NCBI GenBank assembly: GCA_947581925.1
Contig: CANPWB010000003.1
Location: forward strand, 10,723 to 74,722
DNA length: 64,000 nt
Reading direction: 5' to 3'
Source of the DNA: an uncultured Clostridia bacterium
Lineage (GTDB): Bacteria; Bacillota; Clostridia; Christensenellales; CAG-917
The first letter of the stretch is position 1; each line of letters starts with the position of its first letter. Position numbers and translations under genes: made by a program. This document shows, piece after piece, positions 1 to 59,334 of this stretch. Below the pieces are notes generated by a model. It saw nothing but the letters and a program-made list of their open reading frames with translations, was not told the origin of the DNA and made no database searches.

Positions 1-1011
1 CAGGGAGCTGAAAAAGACTATTTTGTTGAGCAGCCCTTCCATTTCGCGTATATTTGTGGTGGAGCTTTCCGCGATAAACTCCGCGACTTCATCCGAGAGC
101 GCGAATTTTGCCTGCGCCGCCTTATCCTTTAAAATTGCGACCCTTGTCTCGGTGTCGGGGATCTGTATATCCACAGTCAAACCCCAACTGAAACGCGTAC
201 GCAGTCTCTCCTCGAGAGTTGTGAGGTCCTTGGGCGCGCGATCGGACGTGAGGATTATCTGTTTGCTCCTGTGGTAGAGGTCGTTGAAAACGTTGAAGAA
301 GAGCTCCTGCGTCGCCTCTTTGTTGATGAGGGATTGTATATCGTCAACCATGAGAATGTCGCAACTGTTGTATTTTTCACGCAGCTTTGTAGCGTCGTCG
401 CGGGACTTTGGGTGCATTATGGACAAAAACTCCGTGATAAGAGTATCCGCGCTGACATAGAGCACCGTCTTTTCGGGGTTATTTTTGTAGACGTAATTGC
501 CTATCGCGTGCAAAAGGTGGGTCTTGCCAAGCCCTACGCCCGAGTATATGAAGAGAGGATTGTATTGATTTCCCGGCTCCTCAGCGACTGTCTTTGCCGC
601 GGCGAGCGCGTAGGCGTTGGACTTGCCCTCTATGAAAGTCTCGAAAGTGTATTTTGGGAGAAATGGGTTTTTCCGCCTTACCCTGTTCACATCTACGGAA
701 GTGCCGATGAAACCCTCGTCCTCAATGAAAATGCTTTGGTTTTTCAAAAACTCGTCCTTTTTGTCGGGAGTGGTGATGACTACGTCCGTAATGGACGAAT
801 TTATTGACGAGACGACCTCGCGTATCTTGTCAAGGTGACGCATATCTATGGTGCGTTTGGATGTTTCGGATATGGTGAGAAGGACCAGTGTTTTGCCGCC
901 AACGACGCACACTGGTTCGAGCTTGTCGATCCACACCTCATAGCTTATCGCGTTCATGGATATGGAAAGTTGATCTTTGGCATCCGCCCAAAACAAGTTG
1001 AGGTCTAACAT
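1..1011 (-). CDS. dnaA: Chromosomal replication initiator DnaA (3' part runs off the window)
   Basis: Not in the ORF track. Manual minus-strand translation from ATG at 1011 gives MLDLNLFWADAKDQL...PKYTFETFIEGKSN...YNPLFIYSGVGLGKTHLLHAIGN, the DnaA Walker A signature. Confidence 0.97.
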   Translation of the reverse strand, partial: MLDLNLFWADAKDQLSISMNAISYEVWIDKLEPVCVVGGKTLVLLTISETSKRTIDMRHLDKIREVVSSINSSITDVVITTPDKKDEFLKNQSIFIEDEGFIGTSVDVNRVRRKNPFLPKYTFETFIEGKSNAYALAAAKTVAEEPGNQYNPLFIYSGVGLGKTHLLHAIGNYVYKNNPEKTVLYVSADTLITEFLSIMHPKSRDDATKLREKYNSCDILMVDDIQSLINKEATQELFFNVFNDLYHRSKQIILTSDRAPKDLTTLEERLRTRFSWGLTVDIQIPDTETRVAILKDKAAQAKFALSDEVAEFIAESSTTNIREMEGLLNKIVFFSSL

Positions 1012-1018
1012 GCTTTTG

Positions 1019-1110
1019 ATTATATCAAAAACGGCAAAAATAGCAAGCAAAAAACAAAAAAAGAAATCTAAACACAATATGTTGAAAAAAAAACGGCGGC
1101 GGGTTATACT
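1019..1110. promoter_or_regulatory. Divergent sigma-A promoters for dnaA and recF
   Basis: Minus strand: TTGCTA-16-TATAAT with extended TG, -10 at 1019-1024. Plus strand: TTGAAA(1082)-17-TATACT(1105-1110). Confidence 0.65.
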
Positions 1111-1118
1111 TGTTGTGT

Positions 1119-2210
1119 ATGAGGATATCTTCTTTGGAGCTTTCAAACTTCCGCAACTATGCGTCCGCGTCCGTCTCGTTTGAAGACGGATTGAATGTCT
1201 TGTACGGCAAAAACGCGAGCGGAAAGACAAATCTCCTCGAGAGCATATACCTCTGCTCCATCTTCAAAAGCCCTCGCACGACGAAGGATAAGGAGCTTGT
1301 GAAGATAGGCGAAAAGAGCGCTACGGTCAAGCTTGTCGTGGAGCGAAAATTTGCAAGACATACCATATATCTGAACATAGACGCGCAGGGGCACAAAAAG
1401 GTCGCCGTGGATGGCTTGCCCATAAACCGCGCGGGAGAACTTTTGGGCGTCTTGGGCGTCGTTTTCTTCTCTCCCGACGAGATGAAACTCGTCAAGGAAT
1501 CCCCCGCCGAGCGCCGCAGATTTTTGGACGTAGGACTCTCACAACAGCAGAAAAGCTACTTTATCGCACTGCAACGCTATAATAAAACCCTGAAACAGAA
1601 AAATAACCTGCTCAAAGACTATCGCGGGAGCGCGAATATAGACGACATGCTTGACGTCTGGGACGCGGGGCTCGCGAGAGAGGGCGCGCTCATCATAAAG
1701 CGCCGAGTGGAGTACATCGCCACCCTAAACGACGCCGCGGGCAAATTTCACAGCGCGATAAGCGGGCAAAAAGAACAGCTCAAACTGTCCTATGAAAGCG
1801 GCATGAGCGACGCCGCGCAGGGCGAAGATATTGAAAAATTGCTACTTGGGGCTATAAAAGCGGCAAGGAGCAAAGATAAAGAACTGGGTTTCAGCACTGT
1901 CGGACCTCACCGCGACGATATCAAGATAGAGCTCGACGGCAAGGACAGCCGCAAGTTCGCCTCGCAGGGACAGCAGCGCACTATCGCCCTCGCAATGAAA
2001 CTCGGCGAAGTGCTCATCTACCGCGACGGCATAGGCGAGTCTCCCGTGCTTTTGCTCGACGACGTACTGAGCGAGCTGGACGAAAACCGCCAAAACCTCC
2101 TCCTCAAAATGACTCGCGGATTTCAGACCTTCCTCACCTGTACCGAGTTCGATTTGCCCTATCCCGCCACAAAATTTCTCATCAACGACGGCAGCGCCAA
2201 AAAAATGTAG
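1119..2210 (+). CDS. recF: DNA replication/repair protein RecF
   Basis: NFRNY motif, Walker A GKNASGKTN, GPHRDD, SQGQQRT, LLLDDVLSELD. Confidence 0.97.
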   Translation: MRISSLELSNFRNYASASVSFEDGLNVLYGKNASGKTNLLESIYLCSIFKSPRTTKDKELVKIGEKSATVKLVVERKFARHTIYLNIDAQGHKKVAVDGLPINRAGELLGVLGVVFFSPDEMKLVKESPAERRRFLDVGLSQQQKSYFIALQRYNKTLKQKNNLLKDYRGSANIDDMLDVWDAGLAREGALIIKRRVEYIATLNDAAGKFHSAISGQKEQLKLSYESGMSDAAQGEDIEKLLLGAIKAARSKDKELGFSTVGPHRDDIKIELDGKDSRKFASQGQQRTIALAMKLGEVLIYRDGIGESPVLLLDDVLSELDENRQNLLLKMTRGFQTFLTCTEFDLPYPATKFLINDGSAKKM

Positions 2211-2242
2211 TTTTATGTCCCGCGCAGGTTTATTGTTTGCAT

Positions 2243-2630
2243 GTGGGCTCCTCGCCCACGCCTCGGCAAGGGGTTTCACCCCCTGCACTCCCCATGCGGG
2301 GCGCTGCCCCGCACCCCGGCAAAGGGCGCTTTGCCCTTTGCAATCCCAAGCTAAAAACGCGCGAACGTCGTGACTTTTGTCACTAGTTCGCGCGTTTTTG
2401 GATTGTGTGTAAGGTAAAACTCCTGCGTGGGAGCTTGATATAAATGTCTCGTATTGTCCGAGGTTTTTTACTTAAACCTGGGGATGTTTCGACTTCGCTC
2501 AACATGACAGAATATTTATAATGTCATTCCGAGCATACGGGGTCGCCAAAATAATTACGAAGTGATTTTTTGGGGTAAAGCGTCGAGGAATCCCCTTGTC
2601 CGAGCGAATAAACGCAACCTCTGTCCGAGC
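2243..2630 (+). repeat. Composite intergenic repeat, copy 1 (modules A-B-C[D]-E)
   Basis: GGGCTCCTCGCCCAC..GGCAAGGG..CCCTGCAC; AAAAACGCGCGAAC..GTTCGCGCGTTTTT hairpin; AAAACTCCTGCGTGGGAGCTTGATA; TGTCATTCCGAGC..GTCGAGGAATCCC; TGTCCGAGC motifs. All recur elsewhere in the window. Confidence 0.9.
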
Positions 2631-3101
2631 TTATCGCTCCGCAAAGTTGACAATGCTTTTATGCTTTTTGTGCGCATACGCAAGAGCTTTGCAAGCGCCG
2701 CTGTTCTCGCGCTGTTCGGCGTAGAAAAGCACAACGTCGCTCATGTCTATCATAGCGCAGTTGCGATAGTACAACGAAGTATACCAATACTCAAAGCTCT
2801 TTGCGGGACAATCAAGCGCCTCGTATTCTTTTTTTTCGTACCAATGCGGCGGCTTATGCAGGTCGTGGTCGAGCGGAAAACAAAATACCCGCTTGATATT
2901 CAAATCGGGCTGCGCCTTTTTCTTCTCCGACACTATGTCGTACACCAGGTCGTCGAAATCGCTCAACCCGCCGAAGAGAAATGTACGCACTCCTTCATTT
3001 ATCGCACTATCTATCGCCTCCGCGACATTAGCGCGCAACTTGTCTGTGATATCAACCTGTTTGTGCCCGAAACACGAGCAAATTTTGTCTTGTTCGATCA
3101 T
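2631..3101 (-). CDS. SLOG-superfamily (YspA/DUF1273-like) protein, 156 aa
   Basis: CSCFGHK..FLFGGLSDFD..RNCAMIDMSDVVLFY..SGACKALAYAHKKHKSIVN fits the YspA-type SLOG pattern. Start placed at ATG 3101 after the AAAGGAG SD. Confidence 0.75.
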   Translation of the reverse strand: MIEQDKICSCFGHKQVDITDKLRANVAEAIDSAINEGVRTFLFGGLSDFDDLVYDIVSEKKKAQPDLNIKRVFCFPLDHDLHKPPHWYEKKEYEALDCPAKSFEYWYTSLYYRNCAMIDMSDVVLFYAEQRENSGACKALAYAHKKHKSIVNFAER

Positions 3102-3301
3102 AAAAACGCCGCTCCTTTGGAACGGCGTTGTAGAATACCGTTCCATGGTTGCGACGCCAATAGACCTTGTTTTCTCCGAACCCAGGCTTAGAACAGGTAT
3201 TACTACCTATATATTCGCCTGGGGACGAATATAGTATGCTGCTATATCCAAAAGAAAAATCGGATATCAAATAACAAGATCTTATGCTATTGTCGTCGCA
3301 A
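3102..3301 (-). ncRNA. Candidate structured leader RNA, copy 1 (family not recognised)
   Basis: Own promoter TTGATA(3329-3334)-17-TACAAT(3306-3311). Closing stem TTGCGACGACAATAG/CTATTGGCGTCGCAA, internal stems, GTAA tetraloop hairpin, terminal hairpin plus U-tract. Covaries with copy 2. Confidence 0.75.
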
Positions 3302-3374
3302 TGCTATTGTATCACCTAAAAATCAAAATATCAATTGCAATTTGAAATATTAAAAACTTTCAACTACCAGTCAT

Positions 3375-3563
3375 AAAAAACGCCGCTCCTTTGGAACGGC
3401 GCCGTAGCATACCGTCCCATAGTCGCAACACTAACAAAACGTATCCTTCAAGTTCGGGAAAAACGTCGGAACTGGCATCACTACCTATGATGTCCATTTT
3501 TCCCAAACAAAAAGTTCGTTATAACTCCTTGAAAGATAATTTTATGATTTATTAGTGTTGCAA
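3375..3563 (-). ncRNA. Candidate structured leader RNA, copy 2
   Basis: Promoter TTGATA(3591-3596)-17-TACAAT(3568-3573). Closing stem TTGCAACACTAATAAA/TTTGTTAGTGTTGCGA; same architecture as copy 1 with different stem sequences. Confidence 0.75.
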
Positions 3564-3616
3564 TGCTATTGTATCACCAAAATATCAGAATATCAATTGT
3601 AATTTGAAATTTACTA

Positions 3617-4140
3617 CTCGGAATGACAAGTTATAATTCCTGTCATGTTGAGCAAAGTCGAGGAAACCCCTAGTCCGAGCGATTAACGCACCCTCTGCCC
3701 GAGCTTTCTTATACACGCCGTCTGCCTTGTCCGAGCAACTTCGCGGAGCAAGCGGTTTTACCCTAAGTACGCAGTGAGGGCGGAGCTCTGTTTTATTTCC
3801 GCCCGAACAAGTGGCATAATTGCAGACTTGTCTGCACGACGTATCTCGGTGAGCGAGCGCAGCCTCTTCCCGCCCTGCCGCGGCGTAATGCTTGGGCTGT
3901 GTTTGCGCTCGAGCGCAAACCGTTAGTGAGTACGGGGAGGGAGGGGAGTCCTGAGTGCAGTGTGGCGGAACGTTATGCTAATACTAATACCCAAACTCAT
4001 CGCTGCACGTAACGAAGGGAGAGGTTGGGTCTTTCACTCCAATGTCTGAGATACTAACGCTTTTCGTGCTTGAACTCTAGTAACGCTTGTCCGGGCATTC
4101 TCATACACGGGCAGAAGCCTTCGTCCGAGCGTCCTCATAT
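3617..4140 (+). repeat. Composite repeat, copy 2 (partial C, E and long extension blocks)
   Basis: Blocks at ~3729-3783, ~3853-3910, ~3943-3964 and ~3997-4060 match the reverse complement of blocks in 6178-6862. Confidence 0.88.
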
Positions 4141-4175
4141 ATGTTTTCCGCAATGTCCATATGAAAAGCGACAGA

Positions 4176-4218
4176 AAAAACCGCCGATTTTGCATATTGT
4201 TTCAAAAGCGGCGGTTTA
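4176..4218 (-). terminator. Probable intrinsic terminator after parB
   Basis: AAACCGCCG..CGGCGGTTT inverted repeat; the adjacent A-tract reads as a U-tract on the minus strand. Confidence 0.55.
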
Positions 4219-4259
4219 TGACGTTAAAATTTAAAGTTTAACTTTGTTTTGTGCAAAAT

Positions 4260-5153
4260 TCAGCCTTTGAATTGTTTGAGCTGTTGCACAAGGGCGTAGA
4301 TGCGGTTGAGATCGTCGGCGGTGAAGTAGTCAATGGTTATCCTGCCCTTTGACTCGTTGCCGCGAAGTTTGACTTTTGTCGCAAACACGCGTTTCATATC
4401 GTTGAGCATTTCGCGGATCTCGGGGCTTTGTATCCTCTCGCGCGGGCCGCCTACGTTGGATTTGCGGGTGAAGTAGAGGCGGACTTCCTGCTCGAGCTCG
4501 CGCACGGACATTTTGCGCTGTACCGCCTTTTTCGCCATGTCGATGAGCACTGCCTTGTCGTCTATGGAAATGAGGGAGCGCGCATGTCCCGGGGACAGCT
4601 CTCCCGAGCGGACGAGGTCGGTGACTTCCTTGGGGAGCTGTAAAAGGCGCAGAGTGTTTGTGACGTACGGGCGGGACTTGCCTATGCGCTGAGCGACGTC
4701 TTCTTGCGTGAGACCGTGGCTGTCCATAAGCTCGCGCATGCCCTCCGCCGCCTCTATCGCGTTGAGGTCCTCGCGGTGCAGGTTCTCGATGAGCGAGATC
4801 TCTTGTATCTGTTGAGGAGACAGGTCTCTGACGATAGCGGGGACTTTTTTGAGCCCCGCAAGCAGACTCGCGCGGAAACGCCTCTCGCCCGCGATGATGA
4901 GATATCTTCCGCCCTCCGTCTTGACAAGGAGCAGAGGTTGAAGTACGCCGTACGTGGCTATGGAGTTTGCCATCTCGCGCAGACTGTCCTCATTGAAAGT
5001 CTTGCGCGGTTGAGAGGGATTGCGATCGATGAGAGTGATGTCTATCTCCTGCGTCGGGATGTCGTCGGGAGTGGGGACTGCTACGTTCGTCTGATTGTCG
5101 TTGAACAGGCCGCTCAAGCCCTGTGCGCCGAGGCCGCCTTTTATCTTTGCCAT
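4260..5153 (-). CDS. parB: ParB/Spo0J chromosome partitioning protein
   Basis: NPSQPRKTF, IIAGERRFRA CTPase motif, ENLHREDLNAIE, HTH KSRPYVTNTLRLL. Confidence 0.97.
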   Translation of the reverse strand: MAKIKGGLGAQGLSGLFNDNQTNVAVPTPDDIPTQEIDITLIDRNPSQPRKTFNEDSLREMANSIATYGVLQPLLLVKTEGGRYLIIAGERRFRASLLAGLKKVPAIVRDLSPQQIQEISLIENLHREDLNAIEAAEGMRELMDSHGLTQEDVAQRIGKSRPYVTNTLRLLQLPKEVTDLVRSGELSPGHARSLISIDDKAVLIDMAKKAVQRKMSVRELEQEVRLYFTRKSNVGGPRERIQSPEIREMLNDMKRVFATKVKLRGNESKGRITIDYFTADDLNRIYALVQQLKQFKG

Positions 5154-5260
5154 AATATCCTCCGAAAATGTTTTCGTTTTTTATTGCGCCGCAGATGTGC
5201 GCTCGCATTTAAGCGTATTGCGTGATTTTTAAATAAATACGCATATGTGGTGCAAAAAGT

Positions 5261-6034
5261 TCACTCGCACGTCTCGCGGGAGAGGAACTCCGCCGCAAGA
5301 GCCCTGTATGCTACCGCGCCCGCGCAGCGATTGTCGTACTCCGTGATAGGCTTGCCATAGCTTGGCGCCTCGGCGAGGCGGATGTTGCGGGGTATCTTTG
5401 TCTCGAACACCTTGTCGCCGAAGAATTTTGTAATCTCCTCAAGCACGCCCTTTGAGAGCTTGGAGCGACCGTCGTACATCGTCAGCACGACGCCCGTCAC
5501 GTCCAGAGACGCGTTGAGGTGCTTTTTGACAAGTTTCACCGTGTTCATCATCTGGCTCAGCCCCTCGAGCGCAAAAAATTCGCACTGTATGGGGATAAGC
5601 ACGCCGTTCGACGCCGTAAGCGCGTTTACCGTGAGCAGCCCCAGCGACGGCGGACAGTCTATGAATACAAAATCGAATTTGTCTTTAACGGGATCCAGCC
5701 TCTCGTCGAGGACGCGCTCCCGCCCTATCACTATTTGGCTGAGTTCGAGCTCCGCACCCGCAAGATCTATGGACGACGGGACAAGATACAGCCCGTCCGG
5801 CTTGCAGGGTATGATCGCGTCCTCGAAGGACAGCTCGTCGCAAAGTACGCCGTATACGGACGCCTTGAGTTTTTTATCGAATATGCCGAGCGCGCTTGTG
5901 GCGTTGCCCTGCGGATCGAAGTCCACAACAAGCACTTTCTTTCCGACCGCCGCGAGCGCCGCCGCAAGATCGACGCATGTCGTGGTCTTACCTACGCCGC
6001 CCTTTTGATTTGAAAACGAAATAATTTTTGCCAT
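5261..6034 (-). CDS. parA: ParA/Soj ATPase
   Basis: NQKGGVGKTTT, DFDPQGNAT, DCPPSLGLLT, IPRNIRLAEAPSYG. Confidence 0.97.
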   Translation of the reverse strand: MAKIISFSNQKGGVGKTTTCVDLAAALAAVGKKVLVVDFDPQGNATSALGIFDKKLKASVYGVLCDELSFEDAIIPCKPDGLYLVPSSIDLAGAELELSQIVIGRERVLDERLDPVKDKFDFVFIDCPPSLGLLTVNALTASNGVLIPIQCEFFALEGLSQMMNTVKLVKKHLNASLDVTGVVLTMYDGRSKLSKGVLEEITKFFGDKVFETKIPRNIRLAEAPSYGKPITEYDNRCAGAVAYRALAAEFLSRETCE

Positions 6035-59257: not shown

Positions 59258-59334
59258 GTTTCTGTAGCTCAGTAGGATAGAGCGTCCGCCTCCTAAGCGG
59301 AAGGTCGTGGGTTCGAATCCCGCCAGGAACGCCA
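59258..59334 (+). tRNA. tRNA-Arg(CCT)
   Basis: Acceptor stem GTTTCTG/CAGGAAC, anticodon arm TCCGC-CT-CCT-AA-GCGGA, GTTCGAATC T-loop, encoded CCA. Confidence 0.97.

Follow-up and report, generated by a model that had tools for sequence, protein, structure and literature searches.

Two tandem RNA units upstream of a SLOG gene

The window analyzed in this work is a stretch of 64,000 nucleotides (nt) from contig CANPWB010000003.1 of the uncultured Clostridia bacterium assembly GCA_947581925.1 (hereafter the source genome). On its minus strand, positions 3099-3614 hold two complete tandem units of a structured RNA, of which unit 2 is an upstream, gene-less copy and unit 1 is the leader of a YpsA-like SLOG gene. 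This layout matches the description given in an earlier note made from the letters of this DNA, and the promoters of the form TTGATA-17-(TG)TACAAT that it assigned to the two units are in the sequence as it stated. Judging from sequence comparison, each unit is probably a leader that acts in cis and terminates transcription conditionally, complete in itself and belonging to a new RNA family. The family is a previously uncatalogued, multi-copy RNA family of gut bacteria of the Christensenellales type.

Both units share a common architecture comprised of the closing helix P1, a bulge, the helix P2, and a three-way junction from which a small variable hairpin and the helix P3 emerge. The P1, P2 and 13-nt-arm stems listed in the earlier note are those of both minimum free energy (MFE) folds, which reach -78.3 kcal/mol for unit 1 (z -6.43) and -69.9 kcal/mol for unit 2 (z -6.71), with none of 200 shuffled sequences as good in either case. 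Between the two units the letters of the stems differ, and near-identity is seen in the promoter, in the first bases, at the tip of P3 and throughout the 3' tail. The R2 covariance model of the family, introduced below, scores 203.3 bits on unit 1, in which P1 has ~11 pairs and one bulge, and 148.6 bits on unit 2.

Each of the two terminator stems has 7 G-C pairs among its 11 base pairs (bp) and is followed by a U tract, as is typical of intrinsic terminators, and a scan for terminator-like sites finds seven of them against 2.0 +/- 1.4 in shuffled sequence. The corresponding promoter scan gives four promoter-like sites against 2.8 +/- 1.9 in shuffles, which is no excess, and the promoters of the window are therefore counted only jointly with the other features. 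The predicted features are collected in Table 1. Gene-start remnants comparable to the one behind unit 2, which the earlier note had already pointed out, lie behind upstream units in two other genomes.

Table 1. Predicted features of the two tandem units and the downstream gene (window positions)
Feature	Position	Strand	Remark
Unit 2 promoter, TTGATA-17-TACAAT, TG in spacer	3568..3596	-	10/12 consensus positions
Unit 2 RNA, upstream gene-less copy, 196 nt	3372..3567	-	from P1 start to the AUG past the U tract
Unit 2 apical pseudoknot strand, GGUAGUGAUGCCAGUUCC	3468..3485	-	
Unit 2 tail pseudoknot strand, GGGACGGUAUGCUAC	3404..3418	-	first 8 nt double as antiterminator 5' arm
Unit 2 intrinsic terminator, 11-bp stem + U tract	3375..3402 (scan: 3403-3379)	-	
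Unit 2 GGAG Shine-Dalgarno sequence	3386-3389	-	inside terminator 3' arm
Gene-start remnant after unit 2, ATG ACT GGT AGT TGA	3360..3374	-	five-codon open reading frame, read 3374->3360
Unit 1 promoter, TTGATA-17-TACAAT, TG in spacer	3306..3334	-	10/12 consensus positions
Unit 1 RNA, 207 nt	3099..3305	-	SLOG gene leader
Unit 1 scaffold	3150..3300	-	P1, 6-nt bulge, P2, three-way junction with variable hairpin P2a, P3
Unit 1 apical pseudoknot strand, GGUAGUAAUACCUGUUCU	3190..3207	-	alternative local pairing: GGUA-GUAA-UACC mask hairpin
Unit 1 tail pseudoknot strand, GGAACGGUAUUCUAC	3130..3144	-	
Unit 1 antiterminator 5' arm, GGAACGGU	3137-3144	-	
Unit 1 antiterminator 3' arm, GCCGUUCC	3119-3126	-	
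Unit 1 terminator, ACGCCGUUCC-AAA-GGAGCGGCGU, 11-bp stem + U tract	3102..3128 (scan: 3129-3105)	-	
Unit 1 Shine-Dalgarno sequence, GGAG	3112-3115	-	
YpsA-like SLOG gene, 156 amino acids (aa)	2631..3101	-	ATG at 3099-3101, immediately past the U tract

Covariation and conserved positions in the family

Covariance models were built first from unit 1 alone, then from 11 copies (R2) and from divergent members (R3), and 91 distinct copies of the family were collected. The main alignment (A10) comprises these 91 copies aligned to R2, with 53 modelled pairs. Standard pairs occupy 93.7% of its cells, compared with 69.0 +/- 0.5% after shuffling (none of 500 shuffles reaches the observed value) and with 38-48% when partners are slid out of register. 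Changes on both sides are seen in 48 of the 53 pairs; helices 1-7 all covary, and all 11 pairs of helices 1-2 change two-sidedly. The fold that the earlier note had read from two copies is thus backed by covariation among homologs, and two checks independent of this alignment agree with it: i) MFE folding of 87 copies gives the long-range closing helix P1 in 85 and a terminal hairpin with a U-rich end in 84, at a median z of -7.7 (20 random members), and ii) when 16 divergent members are aligned simply with MAFFT and passed to RNAalifold, P1 and the terminator emerge again, 14 of the 25 pairs being compensated. Since the pattern recurs in 91 copies with pairing above both the shuffled and the slid controls, it goes beyond chance.

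Sequence conservation is distributed very differently from pairing. In the main subtype (38 copies), conserved bases are found at the base of P1 (UGC.AC/GU.GCA), at the tip (GGUAGU.AUACC..UUC) and in the tail (GG(A/G)ACGGUAU.CUA...GCCGUUCC...GG(A/G)GCGGC), and there is no base conservation beyond the P1 base, the pseudoknot strands described below and the terminator, so that bulge, junction and stems all vary. The CAUAA bulge emphasized in the earlier note is seen in the window and is not conserved in the family. No set of conserved unpaired nucleotides fit for a ligand pocket was found among these 38 copies, and such scarcity is evidence against a classical aptamer pocket. The architecture itself ranges from locus to locus between a three-way junction and a plain hairpin, over lengths of 146 to 232 nt.

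A predicted pseudoknot between the scaffold tip and the tail

The tip of the scaffold (GGUAG...GUUCC) and the tail (GGAACGGUAU.CUAC) are nearly reverse-complementary. The predicted tip-tail pseudoknot covaries between subtypes, and it is new relative to the earlier reading of this locus. In unit 1, GGUAG-U-AAUACC-U-GUUCU (3190-3207) can pair with GGAACGGUAUUCUAC (3130-3144) through 15 pairs with two single-base bulges, and the length of the pairing across the family is 13-17 bp. The best duplex between the interior of each RNA and its own tail has a median energy of -18.2 kcal/mol, compared with -11.1 for shuffled tails; the best tip-tail duplex has z < -2 in 76 of 91 copies and starts at a GUAG-like motif in 85 of 91. 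Cognate tails (-18.3 kcal/mol) are preferred over dissimilar tails taken from other copies (-12.8), and in 49 of 69 copies no more than 5% of the foreign tails equal the cognate one. The pseudoknot columns, counted in rows with both strands aligned, are 88.8% paired, compared with 84.2% in shuffles (reached by none of 500) and 19-60% in slid registers, and 11 of their 15 pairs change on both sides.

Subtypes differ by matched swaps in the two strands, including AAUACC/GGUAUU, AAUACAC/GUGUAU, AAUGUAC/GUACAUU, AAUGCAC/GUGCAUU, AAUAUAC/GUAUAUU, AACACC/GGUGUU and GUAGAU...GUGUGUC/GACGCAC-AUCUAC, and one subtype has GGCAA/UUGC in place of GGUAG/CUAC. A four-unit array before a single SLOG gene (L118:691-1488) mixes pseudoknot subtypes, with one unit of the GGAACGGUAUGCUAC type and three of the GGUGAACGGUAUAUUCUAC type. 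The units of this array lie 32 nt apart, and their promoters overlap the preceding U tracts. At up to 2 mismatches in the source genome, which is incomplete, only four of the five family copies match either pseudoknot strand; the fifth copy, on contig C32, matches neither pseudoknot strand even at 3 mismatches.

When the scaffold is folded by itself, at least three of the first five pseudoknot bases are locally paired in 73 of 90 copies, the local partner of the GGUAG-like bases being downstream (3') in 61 of these and upstream (5') in 12. The earlier note had described the corresponding hairpin as GGUA-GNRA-U(A/G)CC and had remarked that the base of the antiterminator resembles an 11-nt GNRA receptor. 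The hairpin itself is present in the MFE fold of unit 1; unit 2 pairs differently in its MFE fold, and the hairpin is not a conserved element of the family. Its loops (GUAA, GUGA, GUUU, GUUA, GCAA, GAAA and others) do not belong to one type, and the UAUGG...CCAAAG context of the supposed receptor occurs in the main subtype only. A tetraloop/receptor module was therefore dismissed as a family feature, as the loop letters vary and a pseudoknot strand accounts better for the bases. The hairpin is rather regarded as a mask, because the same bases serve the pseudoknot and other subtypes use another local register.

Terminator, antiterminator and the proposed switch

The tail sequence GGAACGG can pair alternatively with CCGUUCC, which is the 5' arm of the terminator, to form an antiterminator, whereas the 3' arm of the terminator holds the GGAG Shine-Dalgarno (SD) sequence and the ATG follows directly past the U tract. 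The terminator/antiterminator tail with a buried SD sequence, as put forward in the earlier note, was thereby recovered. The antiterminator columns are 89.4% paired, compared with 39-71% in slid registers, and in another subtype GGAACGG/CCGUUCC is swapped as a pair to GCGAGAG/CUCUCGC. Median energies are -17.6 kcal/mol for the terminator, -14.0 for the antiterminator and -18.2 for the pseudoknot. At the level of sequence, the helices, their covariation and the mutual exclusivity of the alternatives are all evident.

In the mechanism that we propose, transcription would begin a few bases upstream of P1, and the scaffold (P1, bulge, P2 and mostly a three-way junction with P3), kept in shape rather than in sequence, would present the apical strand. 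The outcome would then depend on a chain of overlapping pairings, in which a local mask hairpin may cover the GGUAG nucleation site, a free apical strand may pair with the tail just 3' of P1 as the pseudoknot, a tail GGAACGG left free may pair with CCGUUCC as the antiterminator, and a free CCGUUCC may close the terminator and bury the GGAG before the AUG. Formation of the pseudoknot would thus leave CCGUUCC free, so that the terminator forms and the SD sequence is hidden (OFF), and a masked or occupied tip would permit the antiterminator, read-through and a free SD sequence (ON). Upstream gene-less units would supply extra promoters and checkpoints. We infer this direction of switching, as well as a kinetic choice between the two states during transcription.

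Conditional termination in cis fits best with the data, because the units have a fixed position and strand, with a promoter at the start of P1 and a terminator and SD sequence at the start of the gene. Several observations weigh against this interpretation. The paired percentages of the A10 alignment are inflated by its having been fitted to the model. Covariation of the antiterminator columns is weak, with 5 of 8 pairs changing on both sides, a level reached by 177 of 500 shuffles, and it is no better than shuffles on two of five measures. The state with pseudoknot and terminator is far more stable than the antiterminator, and the ON state would therefore need kinetics or a factor. A 13-17-bp pairing of the tip of a hairpin to the base of the same hairpin requires a sharp fold-back, and it may be sterically hard to achieve in cis in the plain-hairpin subtypes. 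Finally, gene-less units with strong promoters, found at 7 of 55 loci with 2 or 4 units, fit a trans-acting RNA at least equally well.

Distribution and novelty

The source genome contains five copies of the family, namely units 1 and 2 and one copy on each of contigs C11, C10 and C32. The C11 and C10 copies precede paralogous SLOG genes. The divergent fifth copy (C32:12539-12716, minus strand; 56 bits with R3) precedes a gene for a small hydrophobic membrane protein, upstream of rplU-, ysxB- and rpmA-like genes. Matches to R2 were found in 16 of the 108 genomes belonging to the same taxonomic family, 14 of 51 of the genus and 13 of 151 sampled across the order; R3 raises the last number to 19 of 151, with up to 10 matches in one genome. 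Outside the order, the RNA occurs in one genome among 150 others sampled from the class. Relatives identified through the protein sit in records of uncultured Clostridia or in Christensenellaceae or Christensenella metagenome-assembled genomes, and the sequencing runs whose DNA contains the stretch are labelled rabbit gut metagenome.

The earlier note did not recognise the element as a known Rfam family, and no match to Rfam 15 was found. At gathering scores the whole window yields only a tRNA at 59258-59331; at E <= 10 the region 2900-3800 yields four matches of 15-17 bits, all well under their thresholds; and 12 loci with divergent members yield only an unrelated tRNA at E <= 0.01. No RNA tied to DUF1273, YpsA or SLOG, and no Christensenellales riboswitch, was found in the literature, where survey supplements could hold the motif unnamed. 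The terms Christensenell, SLOG, YpsA, DUF1273, tandem and pseudoknot are absent from the main text of PMC8040213. A phage origin was considered and rejected. A 15-letter pattern from the tail matches at least 120 viral contigs, as chance predicts; none of 80 such contigs among the matches listed has the RNA, and no viral relatives of the SLOG protein were found.

Comparison of paralogous copies reveals an uneven pattern of divergence. Among three copies of the source genome, tail and terminator are 88-96% identical versus 52-66% for the scaffold. Between window positions 2631-3365 and the C11 locus (L040), the gene is 98.3% identical (460/468) and the tail with terminator 95.9%, the promoter 82% and the scaffold just 64-65%. 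This mosaic suggests that the 3' part has undergone gene conversion or that the scaffold changes unusually fast. The family can also serve as an example of how structured RNAs diverge, with paralogues that combine 98% identical genes and 64% identical scaffolds.

Downstream genes and the SLOG protein

By a protein-first search, we identified 68 loci encoding relatives of the window protein, including 56 close (>=57% identity) and 12 distant ones. The RNA lies immediately upstream on the same strand in 55 of the 56 close loci, the single exception having just 64 nt of upstream sequence, and in 41 of 55 loci the end of the covariance model is at most 2 nt from the gene start. One unit is present at 48 of the 55 loci, two at six and four at one; in the four-unit array every unit has its own TTGACT-17-TAAAAT promoter. 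The link to a YpsA-like SLOG gene that the earlier note had drawn is thus confirmed for close homologues. No convincing RNA was found upstream of any of the 12 distant relatives (32-44% identity; Oscillospiraceae/Acutalibacteraceae records), even with filters off, and the fourth SLOG homologue of the source genome, on contig C33, likewise has no convincing RNA upstream with filters off. Divergent RNAs also stand before more distant YpsA-family genes (L036, L142 and L145), and the L036 protein passes the Pfam YpsA model with 70.3 bits (E 2.6e-19).

The RNA-first search gives a broader picture. Among 50 hits, 24 lie within 150 nt before a SLOG gene, five are followed by another unit, three have the SLOG gene 540-600 nt downstream, past an opposite-strand gene, and 18 lack a SLOG gene within 1.5 kb. 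The latter group precedes genes for BspA-type leucine-rich-repeat/Listeria-Bacteroides-repeat and collagen-repeat proteins, as well as GmrSD-type nuclease, DUF6150, zinc-ribbon and helix-turn-helix proteins. By eye, several of 14 further R3 hits stand before long proteins with signal-peptide-like starts, and two occur with proteins bearing a SLOG-like N-terminal motif. Two genomes, G028 (97% complete) and G055 (92%), have the RNA and no SLOG homologue at E <= 0.001.

The window protein itself scores 17.7 bits (E 0.0037) against Pfam YpsA (PF06908), under the 27.7 cut-off, and its sequence matches nothing in the PDB below E 0.2, and so a fold search was required. Its predicted structure (pLDDT, the predicted local distance difference test score, 89.3; pTM, the predicted template-modelling score, 0.87) has as top Foldseek hit the YpsA protein of B. 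subtilis (2nx2; E 2.7e-6, template-modelling score 0.69), followed by ShosA, a molybdenum cofactor (Moco) carrier, DprA, LOG and ThsA-SLOG. According to this structural model, the protein has a predicted SLOG Rossmann-like fold nearest to YpsA. Overproduction of YpsA blocks cell division in B. subtilis and S. aureus, as stated in PMC6459960, and such harm in excess provides a reason for tight attenuation. The putatively regulated genes are dose-sensitive or accessory, comprising those for YpsA-like SLOG proteins, surface lipoproteins and a GmrSD nuclease.

At some loci additional sequence lies between the RNA and the SLOG gene. In a related genome (L041:1380-1500, minus strand; L025:1357-1500), a ~65-nt repeat between the leader terminator and the SLOG start codon parts the terminator from the SD sequence, and the segment AAAGGAGCGGCGUUUUUAU occurs on both sides of it, as if duplicated by insertion. 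In one subtype (L063, L066 and L069, ~1000-2750 in each), an opposite-strand gene of ~155-160 aa lies between the RNA terminator and a SLOG gene on the strand of the RNA ~550-600 nt further on, and read-through at these loci would therefore be antisense to the intervening gene.

Genomic neighbourhood of the cassette

The cassette in the window is flanked by recF-like (1110-2210, plus strand) and dnaA-like (1-1230, minus strand) genes on one side and by parB/parA-like genes (4260-5153 and 5261-6034, minus strand) on the other, and positions 1-6034 appear from the translated reading frames alone to be a replication-origin neighbourhood. Positions 2235-2630 and 3615-4090 around the cassette are mosaics of short intergenic repeats, whose sub-elements each have ~20-76 occurrences in the 1.74-Mb genome and which reach a very high summed depth in gut metagenome contigs. 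An open reading frame of 72 aa overlaps unit 1 (3052-3270) and crosses stems of non-conserved sequence; it was rejected as a leader peptide by reasoning alone, since the stems that it crosses are not conserved in sequence. In run X7, a 394-nt contig joins the start of the SLOG gene (window 3027-3118) to unit 2 (3377-3614) with 64 other letters at the junction and unit 1 skipped. From this single contig, at 90% likeness, related populations appear not to have the same number of units.

Alternative explanations

As the input of the proposed switch, an RNA-binding protein acting in trans, with the GGUAG hairpin or the P1 base as its recognition site, is a plausible if tentative choice; it would fit the short conserved motifs carried on a scaffold of free sequence, and no candidate gene for such a protein was found. 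A small molecule or ion is a possible but doubtful input. Mutual action of the family RNAs in trans appears unlikely as the input, as does the lack of any dedicated signal, with the switch responding to transcription speed or temperature. The small-molecule option corresponds to a classical riboswitch, by which a metabolite or nucleotide signal would set the balance between pseudoknot and antiterminator over a regulon of SLOG and surface-protein genes, and which we likewise consider possible with some doubt. The units do show a complex, strongly covarying fold within the 5' leader, together with an expression platform, and in silico a mutually exclusive terminator and antiterminator are tied to this would-be sensor domain; moreover, many copies in one genome precede diverse genes, as with second-messenger riboswitches, and a tandem arrangement is known among riboswitches. 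SLOG domains bind nucleotide-derived ligands, and the Foldseek list includes ThsA-SLOG with 3'cADPR (a cyclic ADP-ribose) and LOG with AMP. However, known classes keep a conserved pocket, whereas here junctions, bulges and loops are not conserved, the pseudoknot sequence is subtype-specific and even the architecture is variable. Cyclic di-GMP in particular is unlikely as the ligand, since the source genome lacks a GGDEF domain (weak evidence, at 83.6% completeness) and RF01786 gives no match.

The near-obligate linkage to close SLOG homologues invites the idea, raised in the earlier note, that the RNA is a partner of the SLOG protein. Such a partnership could work either through autoregulatory binding of the leader or through a restraint of the type III toxin-antitoxin kind with gene-less units as extra antitoxins. 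Arrays of 2-4 units before the gene, with a promoter and terminator in each, the presence of divergent RNAs next to more distant YpsA-family genes, and the nucleic acid binding or toxin-antitoxin roles of the structural neighbours DprA and ShosA would be in line with this idea. Nevertheless, the 18 of 50 hits without a SLOG gene and the two near-complete genomes without a SLOG homologue (G028 and G055) weaken SLOG as an obligate partner, and we consider such a role rather improbable. To our knowledge SLOG proteins are not endoribonucleases, unlike type III toxins, and the tandem short repeats with an adjacent endoribonuclease toxin that mark type III systems are not seen; the usual arrangement is a single unit, and the C33 homologue and all 12 distant homologues are devoid of the RNA. 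The harm done by excess YpsA (PMC6459960) speaks for the idea of restraint.

Equally improbable in our view is that terminated leaders act mutually in trans, the tip of one pairing with the nascent tail of another and forcing its termination, in which case gene-less units would be repressor genes. The complementary strands are the sole long conserved sequences and are common to paralogues while the stems drift, the gene-less units have kept consensus promoters, and in the plain-hairpin subtypes the pseudoknot looks sterically demanding in cis. The same conservation is also explained by overlapping constraints, since every base belongs to 2-3 alternative pairings and the SD sequence fixes one end; besides, 48 of 55 loci have one unit, and no free-standing partner sequence was found elsewhere in the incomplete source genome. 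Extension of this scheme to a genome-wide RNA-RNA network, in which accumulated terminated leaders would capture nascent tails within a subtype and force their termination, is similarly improbable. Last, the units might be DNA repeats without a functional RNA, akin to miniature inverted-repeat transposable elements, as P1 resembles terminal inverted repeats of 15-20 bp and mosaics of short repeats, with 20-76 genomic occurrences, border the cassette. The supposed inverted repeats change compensatorily with pairing kept (helices 1-2, 11 of 11 pairs two-sided), which argues for selection on an RNA rather than on a transposase site, each copy has a promoter and a terminator, and orientation and spacing to the downstream start codon are fixed. 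In view of the compensatory changes and the fixed orientation, this explanation is considered very improbable and was rejected.

Implications

Gut bacteria of the Christensenellales type are mostly uncultured and little is known about their gene regulation; the family supplies a large uncatalogued set of leader RNAs standing before YpsA-like SLOG genes, as well as surface-protein and defence genes. Its architecture is unusual in combining a scaffold free in sequence with a tip that, behind a mask hairpin, can enter a long pseudoknot with its own antiterminator strand. A metabolite or nucleotide signal as the input would make the family a new class of riboswitch, through which the stimulus of YpsA proteins could be approached; with a protein or the RNA itself as the input, the family would represent a new attenuation system. 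In the event that the RNA-RNA network were real, tip/tail subtypes would be separate channels and gene-less units dedicated repressor-RNA genes, keeping a harmful YpsA-like protein and costly surface and defence genes off for as long as the RNA pool stays high. Such a network would correspond to the countertranscript attenuation of plasmids, here on the chromosome and on the sense strand, and its logic would be toxin-antitoxin-like.

Comparison with known regulatory systems

The ZTP/pfl riboswitches and the cobalamin riboswitches with their L5-L13 interaction, compared here by Rfam scan only, resemble the new family in a promoter-proximal fold, a pairing between a loop and the platform, an exclusive antiterminator/terminator choice and an SD sequence within the terminator. 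The new family differs from them in having no Rfam match, nearly no conserved unpaired core, a 13-17-bp subtype-specific pseudoknot and a variable scaffold architecture. With T-box leaders it shares a long, stem-I-like scaffold kept in shape, a distal element linked to the antiterminator, tandem copies and the use of transcription termination in Firmicutes-type bacteria. In contrast to T-boxes, no specifier-loop or T-box sequence is seen, the downstream genes are not related to aminoacyl-tRNAs or amino acids, and the Rfam T-box model has no match in 2900-3800 even at E <= 10.

Type III toxin-antitoxin systems such as ToxIN likewise have RNA repeats and a terminator upstream of a gene whose protein is possibly harmful in excess. 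The units described here differ in being ~160-230 nt long with their own promoters, compared with 36 nt in ToxIN, in occurring singly at 48 of 55 loci, in preceding a SLOG-fold protein that is not a known RNase, and in standing also before unrelated genes. In plasmid rep attenuation of the pT181/pIP501 type, pairing of an antisense RNA blocks an antiterminator-like fold, so that the terminator forms. The common element is the pairing of an RNA loop with a nascent leader that leads to termination; the plasmids use a separate countertranscript from the opposite strand, whereas here both strands are on one chromosomal RNA. The attenuators of trp leaders, with their alternative 1:2, 2:3 and 3:4 pairings, are likewise built as a chain of overlapping alternative helices that ends in an intrinsic terminator, represented in the new family by mask, pseudoknot, antiterminator and terminator. 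Unlike trp leaders, the new family has no conserved leader peptide and no visible ribosome-stalling input, and its chain includes a long-range pseudoknot that spans a scaffold of ~140 nt.

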